Source of the DNA: a virus
Taxonomy: Duplodnaviria > Heunggongvirae > Uroviricota > Caudoviricetes
DNA: 23,852 nucleotides
Direction: 5' to 3' (one strand)
Virus record (IMG/VR): IMGVR_UViG_2585427740_000001
This document shows positions 3,432 to 12,256 of the stretch, in pieces. Position 1 is the first letter of the stretch. Each line of letters opens with the position of its first letter. The notes under the pieces are model-generated. The model searched no databases. It worked only from the letters and a program-made list of their open reading frames with translations, and was not told where the DNA came from. A program made the translations under genes and the position numbers.

Positions 3432-3770
3432 TTATATCATTAATTTTGTTTCGTGCCAGCCTTTGGTCACCCAGCATTGTGAGTCACCATTACACGGGCA
3501 TGAATTAACAGGAACTCTCTCGCCGCACTTACCGCAACGTTTTCTGCTGATCGATTTTATACGCCAGCGCACACGTGCATCATCCTGGCGGCTCAGTAAC
3601 GCGATGTACTCACCAAACTCGTAAGGCGCATGCCTGAAGCGGCGCGTGGCTCAGTTACGATCCAGCATTTCAATTTCCTGAGCATCAAGTACAAGCTCCA
3701 GCTTACGCATACCGGATGATGCTTGCTTGGCTCTCTGATCGACTTTGCGCTCTGCTGATGATTTAGCCAT
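3432..3770 (-). pseudogene. Small ORF interrupted by an in-frame TGA: 39 codons (3651-3770), opal stop, then 71 further in-frame codons (Cys-rich, CxxC...CxC) ending at TAA 3432-3434
   Basis: Hand translation of the minus strand: MAKSSAERKVDQRAKQASSGMRKLELVLDAQEIEMLDRN*ATRRFRHAPYEFGEYIALLSRQDDARVRWRIKSISRKRCGKCGERVPVNSCPCNGDSQCWVTKGWHETKLMI. AGGA-type RBS before the ATG. Confidence 0.35.
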
Positions 3771-3965
3771 TCTGCTTTTCCTGCATTAGGAGAAAGACAA
3801 TCATGGCGGCGCGGATACTTCCGGTATCTTTTTACTCGATATTACCCTTCAATGGCACATACAAGAAGAGAGCCATCAACAGGAGTGAGTGAGGAATCGA
3901 CAACCAGCAACGCTTAATTATCTATAGTGTCGTATTTGCTTCATAAAATATGGCGAATAACACAA

Positions 3966-3999
3966 AGCCCGCAGCAGCTCATTGTGCGGGCTTTTCTTA
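3966..3999 (+). terminator. Stem-loop (AGCCCGCA / TGCGGGCT, 8-bp stem) followed by TTTCTTAT; candidate intrinsic terminator
   Basis: Inverted repeat 3966-3973 / 3984-3991 with T-rich tail, read directly. Lies between the 4064-4679 gene and the small ORFs at 3432-3770. Confidence 0.4.
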
Positions 4000-4063: not shown

Positions 4064-4679
4064 TTATCTAAAAGTCTTTCCACTTTTAACGTCTAGGTAT
4101 ATTCTGTTCGACAACGTCATTCCTCCGCAATATGTGAAATAGATGTTTTTCCCCTTATTGCTTGATGCCATCCACCCTCCGATTTCCTTAAAGTCGCTTT
4201 CCGTGCAGACCCCTTCGTTTATTAACTTCCTAGCTGCCGAAGAAAACTCTTTTTTGTATATACGGTAGTCATCAGATCCTTTGATTAAAGTATCATCTCC
4301 GCTCGCATTTTCAGCAGGATCTGATGGCCTTTCACTGCTAAGATCACTAAGTTTAACCCATTCTGAAAACTTGCCATTGACGATTCCGTTTTTTCTTGTG
4401 CAGGATTTATTACCTTCTTTAATATATTCGCTTTCCCCTCCCACACATGAGGCTGAATATGGCTCAGTTATACGAACCCATTCACCTTTTTTTTTCTAGA
4501 AAATCTACGCCTTCCCTGAAAAATAGTTTCCCAGCCACTCCACATTTACTTGAAGGGCAGGTATGTCTTTCCGTTCGATCAACAACAACCCAAAGTCTTG
4601 ATTCATTTTTTGCCATTGCCGATGGTATTTGAGATGAGACAATTAACGTAAGCCCTAAAATTAGTATTGATTTTTTCAT
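4064..4679 (-). pseudogene. Secreted protein gene (about 205 aa if intact) split by a frameshift inside an A9 homopolymer tract
   Basis: Upstream ORF (4482-4679) starts with a signal peptide (MKKSILILGLTLIVSSQIPSAMA) and has a good RBS. It ends at TGA just after nine consecutive A (plus-strand T9 at 4487-4495). The downstream ORF (4064-4444) continues open in the other frame through the tract; removing one A fuses them. Confidence 0.65.
4487..4495. repeat. Homopolymer tract (T9 on plus strand, A9 in the coding strand) at the frameshift point of the 4064-4679 gene
   Basis: Counted directly in the sequence. Confidence 0.9.
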
Positions 4680-4977
4680 TGTAATTTCCTTTTACTTTTT
4701 ACAAAGCGTTTAATCATGGCTGATTATCTTTAAGCGTAGTAACAGCCTTGTGCGAAACATGTTACCAAATCGCCATTTCAGTGTATCCGCAGTTAGGCTG
4801 CCACTTCAAGGATTCCTAATTACATGGTACGTAAGCGTAAAATCCCGTTGGTTGTCGGGTAATAACTCTGATCAAATCTCCCTTGTCTTTTGCTCTTACG
4901 TATGCAGCTCTTGTGTATTCAACCCAGGCCTCCAGTTCAGCAATACGCTTACTTCCATCCGAGATAACACCTTCTAC

Positions 4978-5229
4978 TCACGCTGCTCGTTGAGTTTTGA
5001 TTTTTGCTGTCTCCAGCTCAACACGCAGTTTCCTCACCGTTAGCGCAATATCCTCGTTCTCCTGGTCGCGGCGTTTGATGTACTGCTGGTTTCTTTCCCG
5101 TTCATCCAGCAGTGTCAGCACAATCGATGGTGTTACCAGCTCATGGAAAAGGTCCGCGTCAAATCCCCAGTTGTCATGCATTGCCTGCTCTGCCGCTTCA
5201 CGCAGTGCCTGAGAGTGAATTACGCTCAC
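4978..5229 (-). CDS. Hypothetical coiled-coil protein (83 aa to the first stop); the frame continues for 53 more codons after an in-frame TGA (to TAG at 4816-4818)
   Basis: GTG start overlaps the stop of the upstream TraR-like gene (GTGA overlap). Downstream region 4816-4977 is open in the same frame but has no start codon of its own. Confidence 0.5.
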   Translation of the reverse strand: MSVIHSQALREAAEQAMHDNWGFDADLFHELVTPSIVLTLLDERERNQQYIKRRDQENEDIALTVRKLRVELETAKIKTQRAA

Positions 5230-6180: not shown

Positions 6181-6861
6181 TCATCGCCATTGCTCCCCAA
6201 ATACAAAACCAATTTCAGCCAGTGCCTCGTCCATTTTTTCGATGAACACCGGCACCATCTCGTCAAAACTCGCCATGTACTTTTCATCCCGCTCAACCAC
6301 GACATAATGCAGTCCTTCACGCTTCATACGCGGGTCATAGTTGGCAAAGTACCAGGCATCTTTTCGTGTCACCCACATGCTGTACTGCACCTGGGCCATG
6401 TAAGCCGACTTTATGGCCTCGAAACCACCGAGCCGGAACTTCATGAAATCCCGGGAGGTAAACGGGCATTTCAGCTCAAGGCCATTGCCGTCACTGCATA
6501 AACCATCGGGAGAGCAGGCGGTGCGCATACTTTCGTCGCGATAGATGATCGGGGATTCAGTAACATTCACGCCGGAAGTGAATTCAAACAGGGTTCTGGC
6601 GTCGTTCTCGTACTGTTTTCCCCATGCCAGCGCCTTAGCATTAACTTCCGGAGCCACACCGGTGCAAACCTCAGCCAGCAGGGTGTGGAAGTAGGACATT
6701 TTCATGTCAGGCCACTTCTTTCCTGAGCGGGGCTTGGCTATCACGTTGTGAACTTCTGAAGCGGTGATGACGCCGAGCCGTAATTTGTGCCATGCATCAT
6801 CCCCCTGTTCGACAGCTCTCACGTCGATCCCGGTACGCTGCAGGATAATGTCCGGTGTCAT
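6181..6861 (-). CDS. exo: Lambda exonuclease (Red-alpha)
   Basis: 226-aa translation ([30 protein letters not shown]...) matches lambda Exo as recalled. Confidence 0.97.
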
Positions 6862-7306
6862 GCTGCCACCTTCTGCTCAGTGGCTTTCTGTTTCAGGAAT
6901 CCAAGAGCTTTCACTGCTTCGGCCTGTGTCAGTTCTGACGATGCGCGAATGTCGCGGCGAAATATCTGGGAACAGAGCGGCAATAAGTCGTCATCCCATG
7001 TTTTGTCCAGGGCAATCAGCAGAGTGTTAATCTCCTGCATGGTTTCATCGTTAACCGGAGTAATGTCGCGTTCCGGCTGACGTTCTGCGGTGTATGCGGT
7101 ATTTTCGACAATGCGCTCGGCTTCATCCTTGTCATAGATACCAGCAAATCCGAAGGCCAGACGGGCACACTGAATCATGGCTTTATGCCGTAACATCCGT
7201 TTGGGATGCGACTGCCACGGCCCCGTAATTTCTCTGCCTTCGCGGGTTTTGAATGGTTCGCGGCGGCATTCATCCATCCATTCGGTAACGCAGATCGGAT
7301 GATTAC
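6858..7306 (-). pseudogene. bet: bet (Red-beta), 5'-truncated: only the C-terminal ~145 codons remain
   Basis: Translation from ...NHPICVTEWMDECRREPFKTREGREITGPWQSHPKRMLRH... to the C-terminus matches lambda Bet as recalled. The N-terminal ~115 codons are absent and the frame runs into ren-derived sequence on the opposite strand. Confidence 0.88.
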
Positions 7307-7426
7307 CGGTTCGCTACCAGGGAAGAACGGGAAGGAAAGGTGAGCACGAATCTGATTTTCAAGGAGTGTCGCCAGAGTGCCGCGATGAAGCGGGTGTTGG
7401 CATTTTATCGCGGCAATTTTCAATAG
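7304..7426 (+). pseudogene. ren: ren 3' fragment (last ~40 codons: YRFATREEREGKVSTNLIFKECRQSAAMKRVLAFYRGNFQ*)
   Basis: Plus-strand frame matches the recalled C-terminus of lambda Ren (...YYRFATREEREGKMSTNLVFKECRQSAAMKRVLAVYGVKR). It begins abruptly at the bet breakpoint. Confidence 0.7.
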
Positions 7427-7463
7427 ACTATGTACATAAAAATATCATTTTTTTAATACATGT

Positions 7464-11173: not shown

Positions 11174-12256
11174 TTAGAACTGGTAAACCATACCTACAGC
11201 AACGATATCATCGGTAGCAACGCCAGATGCTTTCGTGAAATCGCTCTTATCAATCAGGTTGATTTTGTAATCAACAAAAGTGGACATATTTTTGTTGAAG
11301 TAATAGGTTGCACCTACATCAATATATTCAACCAGGTCCTGATCACCCCACGCACCCAAGTCTTTTCCTTTAGATTGCAGGTAAGCAACGGACGGACGCA
11401 GACCGAAGTCGAACTGATATTGTGCAACTACTTCGAAGTTTTGTGCTTTGTTGGCAATATGGTTATTACCAAAAACAGTCATGTTCTGGGTTTCAGAATA
11501 GGTGGTAGCCAGATAGATGTTGTTCGCATCATATTTCAGACCAGCTGCCCATACTTCAGCATTTTGACCAGATGCATTCAGGCTGTTGTTACCGTAGATA
11601 ACCTGATTATTAGTGCGGTCAGATTTAGCATAGGTTGCACCTACACCGAATCCTTCATACTCATAAGTAGTGGAGAAACCGAAACCATCACCATTAGCTT
11701 CAGTTACGTCAGTGCGGTCATTTTTACCCTGATACTGAGCAGCAAAGTTCAGACCATCAACCAGACCAAAGAAGTCATTGTTACGATAAGTTGCAACACC
11801 TGTGGTGCGACCAGTCATGAATACATCTGTTTGGGTCCAGGTATCGCCACCGAATTCTGGCAGAACGTCGGTCCATGCACCAATATCGTATGCTACACCG
11901 TAGTTACGGCCATAATCGATGGAGCCGTAGTCACCGAATTTCAGGCCAGCGAAGGCAAGACGGGTTTTATCTTTGGAGGAACCTTGAGATTCAGCGCGGT
12001 TGCCTTTGAATTCATATTCCCACTGACCGAAACCAGTCAGTTGATCGTTGATTTGGGTTTCACCTTTGAAGCCAAGACGGGCATAAGTAGTATCACCATC
12101 ATCTGCATCATTAGAGGAGAAGTAGTGCTTAGCATTAACTTTCCCGTACAGATCCAGCTTGTTACTGTCTTTATTATAAATTTCAGCTGCCTGAGCAGAC
12201 ATCGCCATCAGTACTGATGCAGCTACAGCAGAAATTGCCACTGTTAATTTTTTCAT
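11174..12256 (-). CDS. nmpC: General porin of the OmpC/OmpF/NmpC(Lc) family
   Basis: 360 aa from [23 protein letters not shown] (signal peptide) to the C-terminal ...VGMVYQF. Resembles NmpC/Lc as recalled. The ORF-track ORF extends 20 codons further upstream, judged spurious. Confidence 0.92.

Follow-up and report, generated by a model that had tools for sequence, protein, structure and literature searches.

The locus considered here raises a simple question: when the gene for a secreted protein is broken exactly at a run of nine A residues, is the copy dead, is it one state of an expression switch, is the break a site of programmed recoding, or is the extra base an error of sequencing? The window, i.e. 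the whole 23,852-nt stretch of DNA that was analysed, derives from the Escherichia coli chromosome: it starts in ybhC and enters a lambdoid, DLP12-like prophage at the lambda attachment site, and the gene lies within the prophage on the minus strand (see table). The initial annotation had offered two readings, a pseudogene or a phase switch; the former stands, in the sense that the copy carries a frameshift in a gene which, almost everywhere else, forms one in-frame ORF with eight A residues (A8), whereas the latter is not supported. The best explanation, which we consider very probable, is a recent, non-programmed, loss-of-function +1 insertion at a homopolymer hot spot, giving an allele that is perhaps slightly leaky.

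Features of the frameshifted gene and its surroundings, in window coordinates
Feature	Position	Strand	Basis or remark
Whole gene, encoding a 204-aa secreted SH3b-domain protein when intact	4064..4679	-	PHROG 8310, WP_000748284.1
ORF1, 65 codons plus TGA, ending ...LEKKR	4482..4679	-	Sequence; stop 4484..4482
Signal peptide, codons 1-23 of ORF1	4611..4679	-	Sequence
A9 homopolymer (T9 on the plus strand)	4487..4495	-	Sequence; reference state A8
Downstream frame (+1 with respect to ORF1), open between the first A and TAA 4064	4064..4495	-	
Shine-Dalgarno-like AAGGA, 7 nt 5' of ATG 4679	4687..4691	-	Read from sequence
GC-rich hairpin, AGCCCGCA ... TGCGGGCT	3966..3992	.	Sequence; T-rich flanks on both strands

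The gene comprises 616 nt in the window as against 615 nt when intact, and is thus frameshifted. On the sense strand it starts with ATG at 4679 and an N-terminus that reads MKKSILILGLTLIVSSQIPSAMA as far as the signal peptide boundary and KNES... beyond it; past the signal peptide, ORF1 encodes the first ~41 residues of the mature SH3b domain. The break itself reads ...CTA GAA AAA AAA AGG TGA, the run being made up of the last two bases of the Glu62 codon, the codons of Lys63 and Lys64, and the first base of AGG. It is the longest homopolymer in the window, the next longest, of which there are several, being 7 nt. The initial annotation had placed the end of a signal peptide-bearing ORF just after the nine A residues, and this is correct: the TGA lies 5 nt past the last A. 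It had also described a downstream ORF of 126 codons that is open through the tract in a different frame. Indeed, TAG directly precedes the run in the +1 frame, which is then open throughout, and the ORF listing gives 126 aa for it from its first start codon, GTG 4444. The remainder of the SH3b domain and the conserved C-terminal domain are specified by this frame, which has neither a signal peptide of its own nor an evident ribosome-binding site in the sequence; it matches the intact allele exactly, with no additional mutation. In silico, the two frames are joined into a 204-aa protein by the removal of one A or the addition of two, whereas the addition of one fails, such that A8 and A11 are in frame and A7, A9 and A10 are out of frame. 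The secreted protein of ~205 aa that a contraction to A8 had been predicted to restore can accordingly be named, as the A8 version translates to a protein identical to WP_000748284.1 (204 aa). Some 70 nt 3' of the stop codon of the gene, between it and a UmuD-like remnant, lies the hairpin listed in the table, which has a stem of 8 bp; a scan of the sequence flags a shorter version of this stem, on the plus strand only. It is a candidate bidirectional terminator, which could possibly also serve the minus-strand gene.

The intact protein is annotated as a 'hypothetical protein' and occurs on at least 1000 contigs. It matches PHROG 8310, a family without known function, from end to end, and no match was returned by either NCBIfam or PADLOC. 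The domain layout is a signal peptide, an N-terminal SH3b fold and an uncharacterized C-terminal domain with conserved Cys residues. The protein scores below the cut-off for Pfam PF08239 (SH3_3), and is counted as an SH3b protein on a definition that accepts either the SH3b β-barrel fold or a PF08239 match. The structure was predicted with P0017, which differs from P0016 by one signal-peptide residue, as the first row, and in the predicted model residues 1-24 have low pLDDT, as expected of a signal peptide. No match to the C-terminal ~85 residues was found in the PDB or BFVD libraries searched and, in comparison with bacterial SH3b (SH3_3, PF08239) proteins, there is no catalytic domain (NlpC/P60, amidase or lysozyme) attached here.

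A database search yielded 82 relatives, many of them exactly 204 aa long; those from Pseudomonas and Aeromonas share 60-69% identity, and the series extends down to 35%. Each of the aligned homologues (28-38 sequences, to 35% identity) is a single ORF. The invariant residues, which lie on either side of the run, comprise W67, R69, G102, W107, P118, S135, F145, C158, C184 and G185, whereas E62 and Y74 are invariant in the 28-sequence alignment and nearly invariant in the 38-sequence alignment. Six Cys positions are conserved or nearly so among the homologues, a pattern that would fit an exported, disulfide-bonded protein. Comparison with an 89%-identical homologue gives a dN/dS of 0.085 for the gene as a whole, of 0.046 for codons 25-64, the mature part 5' of the run, and of 0.072 for the part 3' of it; judged from these sequence comparisons, the gene is under strong purifying selection, as one ORF. 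Since codons 62-64, which carry the run, lie halfway through the SH3b domain, all that the 65-aa product comprises is the signal peptide and half a domain.

The family is widespread, its carriers being lambdoid phages and, in Pseudomonas and Aeromonas, integrase-associated islands. The 69%-identical Pseudomonas homologue lies directly 3' of the gene for a 499-aa tyrosine integrase (L006 3402-5615; L007 92-2305), and in L006 it also adjoins pyocin S and immunity genes; its position beside the integrase suggests that the family moves on integrative elements besides lambdoid phages. Given that its proteins are exported, combine an SH3b domain with an unmatched C-terminal domain and evolve under strong purifying selection, the family may deserve study in itself, and is maybe the more interesting object.

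The length of the run in other genomes was examined at the level of both DNA and protein. The region is present in 132 of 5,426 complete RefSeq E. coli genomes, 128 of which span it fully, and it was searched with queries of 141 nt (A9) and 139 nt (A7) around the run; a 61-nt query centred on the run gave no match in ecoli_genomes, probably due to low-complexity masking and the 28-nt word size. None of the RefSeq E. coli genomes matches either the A9 or the A7 query exactly. The best matches show one gap relative to the A9 query and one gap relative to the A7 query, the split between identity bands (52/80) is equal for both queries, and with the 141-nt query each of the 58 full-length rows sampled covers 140 nt: taken together, these results place A8 in 128 of 128 genomes. 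A pattern scan of IMG/VR that allowed any run length found 32 A8, one A9 and one A7 among 34 contigs, where the sole A9 contig is the window's own sequence, and a pattern scan of the JGI/ENA metagenomes found A8 in 22 of 22 contigs; this amounts to A8 in 54 of 56 contigs for the two sources combined. The run is A8 in Escherichia phage Chlobot, and also in the 89%-identical homologue (L005), which has a different genetic context. A comparison of tract length across related genomes had been proposed in the initial annotation; its outcome, A8 nearly everywhere, speaks against a switch.

Frameshifted alleles are rare, but they recur. In the protein collection, the A9 product (...LEKKR) is seen on three allelic backgrounds (3 + 5 + 2 contigs, about ten in all), the exact 65-aa product of ORF1 corresponding to WP_148789270.1 on 3 contigs; the -1 product (...LEKKVNGFV) is seen on three backgrounds (15 + 10 + 2 contigs), its 69 aa being compatible with A7 or with the deletion of an adjacent G, which the protein cannot tell apart; and the A10 product is seen on two (1 + 1 contigs, both of ~5 Mb). 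For the A9/A7 products P0006 and P0003, the alleles are known from protein sequence alone. The frameshift products listed thus account for ~40 contigs, as against the 1000 or more that carry the intact protein, and off alleles make up no more than a few per cent, with none among the 128 complete genomes. The DNA of ten contigs with the 126-aa fragment reveals A7 at five loci, A10 at one, an IS1 insertion at one, A8 with loss of an adjacent G at two, and the A9 of the window; the gene is otherwise identical in all ten. In the G-loss alleles (L012 and L015, ~1450-1465), the A8 run is intact and one of the two following G's has been lost (AAAAAAAAGTGAATGG), giving the same 69-aa product as A7; the flanks of these two loci differ. 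IS1 occupies at least three positions in the 615-nt gene, namely a few codons 5' of the A run, codon ~43, and in or 5' of the signal-peptide region; the insertions come from other E. coli lineages, namely that of ATCC 8739 (H24-H28), 1332KP and PSS-16 (H30), and one is seen at L002 (3627-4324). The run is therefore a genuine hot spot for indels, which has seen about ten independent events, as expected of the slipped-strand mispairing site that had been proposed (A7, A9 and A10 alleles on several backgrounds), and its ON length is nearly fixed.

Whether the tract is itself a selected feature can be judged from codon usage. The gene uses AAA 16 times versus AAG 5 times, and GAA 15 times versus GAG twice, and with such a bias one would expect GAA AAA AAA for roughly every second Glu-Lys-Lys. 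Among the homologues, positions 63 and 64 are variable (T, R, Q, E, I, N); at this site the Pseudomonas gene reads GAG ACA AAG GGC, and it has no run of 6 or more anywhere in the gene. The evidence argues that the run is not a designed feature, GAA-AAA-AAA being what codon usage would predict.

The age of the A9 allele bears directly on whether it is real. Over its 23,852 nt, the window is separated from PEC1009, the nearest complete genome, by 6 SNPs and by this indel alone and, on comparison with intact alleles, there is no second lesion within the gene; consequently, the A9 event is either very recent or an error. Contig JORU01000038.1 of GCA_000713345.1 is 100% identical to the window throughout the 14.7 kb that are available, as is IMG/VR UViG_2585427733_000001 for 4.9 kb. 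If the true run were A8 and the additional A were a homopolymer miscall in a 2014 draft assembly, this would account for the sole indel being situated in the longest homopolymer of the window and for the lack of A9 in any complete RefSeq genome, and it would be in keeping with the contig sizes of both A10 alleles, which are typical of long-read assemblies. However, the exact 65-aa A9 product is found on three contigs (581,377 bp, 739,491 bp and one of 20-50 kb), and A9 products occur on two further allelic backgrounds, read-based assemblies from Logan and ENA being among the sources; moreover, no second homopolymer indel is seen in the 23.8 kb, despite the several 7-nt runs there. We regard such an error as unlikely, although it should be given some weight. 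Far less weight attaches to a true contingency locus, in which the poly(A) run would be kept so that slipped-strand mispairing toggles the secreted protein ON (A8, A11) and OFF (A7, A9, A10). The A run is internal to the ORF and sets its reading frame (codons 62-65), run lengths of 7, 8, 9 and 10 are all found in nature on several backgrounds, which is what a weak phase-variable locus would leave, the product is exported, like many phase-variable proteins, and the A8 run persists in a homologue at dS ~0.7. Nevertheless, more than 95% of alleles are ON, and ON and OFF lengths are not frequent among close isolates, given the uniformity of the 128 complete genomes and of all but two of the 56 environmental or viral contigs. 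Nor is the repeat kept beyond coding need or conserved among homologues: codon bias alone accounts for it, and it is absent from the distant ones. The same gene has also been hit by IS1 insertions and the G deletion, which are irreversible, and hence indicate plain loss rather than switching. In addition, when mismatch repair is proficient, the mutation rate of A/T runs of 8-9 in E. coli is far below that of classical contingency tracts. The stochastic, phase-variable expression envisaged in the initial annotation is thus very improbable on all of these counts.

Programmed recoding would require the two-ORF form to be functional, with slippage or a +1 shift fixing the ratio of short to full-length product. 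It is hardly credible, because this form is not conserved (the homologues and nearly all E. coli alleles are single ORFs, the split being a rare allele), and because the 65-aa product breaks off midway through the SH3b domain, even though the 9A run at the junction has the canonical slippage length in many bacteria (PMC1088944), and AAA-AGG-TGA presents a slippery Lys codon, then a rare Arg codon, then a stop.

We therefore return to the recent, non-programmed loss of function as the preferred reading. In the normal state, one 204-aa exported protein would be made from the A8 gene. Replication slippage would have added one A within GAA-AAA-AAA-GG, converting A8 to A9 in the sequenced lineage, whereupon translation would stop at codon 66, inside the SH3b domain, leaving the remaining 140 codons with neither a signal peptide nor a start signal. 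The indel rates of E. coli climb exponentially with run length (PMC8510543), which explains the recurrence of A7, A9 and A10. Reversion to A8 at the DNA level would be possible, at ordinary hot-spot rates only.

From the arrangement of codons at the break, the A9 allele may be, and probably is, slightly leaky. A Lys-tRNA on the last AAA could make a +1 shift onto AAA while the rare AGG awaits its tRNA, after which the reading would be GGT GAA TGG and the product would have the exact wild-type sequence; this route rests on sequence logic and on general knowledge of hungry-codon frameshifting. A -1 ribosomal shift on A-AAA-AAA was considered and rejected, in that it leads into the wrong frame (...KKKVNGFV and then a stop), the same as that of the A10 product. 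Alternatively, slippage by RNA polymerase could give an mRNA lacking one A, and thereby the exact wild-type ...LEKKGEW.... In many bacteria, slippage turns significant at a length of nine A/T, and rescue through the mRNA may occur in disrupted genes that contain 9A runs; such genes have been termed 'pseudo pseudogenes' (PMC1088944). A reporter study, on the other hand, describes E. coli RNA polymerase as slipping poorly on poly(A), runs of up to A8 having given no slippage of the deletion type (PMC6260861), and this counts against a leak by transcriptional slippage. As regards the ribosomal route, non-programmed frameshift suppression of 1-10% has been reported (PMC10861913). One could go further and suppose that the A9 allele is not dead at all, and that RNA slippage (A9 to A8 or A11) or the +1 shift at AAA-AGG-TGA would supply a little of the exact wild-type secreted protein and, combined with the A7/A8/A9/A10 variation at the DNA level, would constitute a crude expression dial for a prophage-encoded SH3b protein whose C-terminal domain would be a fold without known relatives; we consider this improbable.

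It is instructive to compare the locus with known systems. In common with contingency genes of Neisseria, Haemophilus, Campylobacter and Helicobacter, it has a mononucleotide run in the 5' part of the gene, an exported product and length variants that toggle the frame; unlike those genes, its ON length is nearly fixed, and its run is short (8), consists of A, is explained by codon usage and is not conserved in the family. To our knowledge, mismatch-repair-proficient E. coli, the host here, does not usually use homopolymer phase variation. In the programmed transcriptional slippage genes mxiE and tssM, the split organization is the form characteristic of the species, whereas here the split is a rare allele of an otherwise intact gene. 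What these Shigella/Citrobacter cases (mxiE, T9; tssM, poly-A) share with it are overlapping enterobacterial ORFs and an A/T run of 9-11 nt (PMC1088944, PMC4256274). The locus resembles the 'pseudo pseudogenes' (Baranov et al. 2005, PMC1088944) in that a one-base insertion in an A run breaks an ORF whose orthologues are fused, single ORFs, in that a run of at least nine A/T, here 9 A's in the sense strand, is situated at the break, and in that the exact wild-type protein would be regained from an mRNA that has lost one A or gained two. It differs in that the rescue would be by -1 or +2, whereas that of the E. coli example figured in PMC1088944 is by an inserted A, and in that E. coli RNA polymerase did poorly on poly(A) in reporter assays, with deletions especially so (PMC6260861).

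In itself, the event is a textbook homopolymer indel that inactivates a dispensable prophage gene; its kind is already known, and it carries little biological weight. Its value is for annotation: WP_148789270.1 ought to be joined with the 126-aa fragment in one entry, marked as a frameshifted copy of WP_000748284.1.

The gene is accessory and cargo-like, and lies in the int-proximal 'b/ea' region of a defective DLP12-like prophage of E. coli. It is preceded in the prophage by int, xis and small ORFs, and followed by an ea22-like remnant, a DksA/TraR-like gene, exo and a truncated recT/ren fragment; after ren come ybcN, ninE, rusA, quuD, an ompC-like porin gene, lysis genes, bor, nohD, tail fibre genes and an AraC-family gene. 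The prophage is clearly defective. At ~7304 (window 6858-7430), a recT gene that lacks its N-terminus meets a fragment of ren on the opposite strand, implying that a deletion took out what lay between. In lambda, the corresponding interval would hold the immunity region and replication genes. Presumably, the early-left promoter went with the same deletion, and the genes of the left operon, among them the one studied here, have probably lost their phage promoter; a promoter scan found no minus-strand promoter 5' of the gene.

With a GC content of ~37-41%, against ~50% in its neighbours, the gene forms a low-GC island. The flanking genes are annotated as pseudogenes in related genomes. The flanks at 3432-3910 and 4930-5181 are decayed in all of the related genomes examined: they hold a 66-nt remnant of a UmuD-like 'DNA repair protein', an ORF with an internal stop, and a frameshifted, truncated ea22-like gene. 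The free phage Chlobot has the intact gene at the same position, between the DksA-like gene and xis/int, and at the corresponding flank positions its UmuD-like gene and a transcriptional-regulator gene are annotated as normal. Elsewhere in the prophage, the ompC/nmpC-like porin gene (window 11174-12256) is located between the Q antiterminator gene and the lysis cassette, and together with bor and a truncated Ail/Lom-family gene it represents cargo typical of the DLP12 type.
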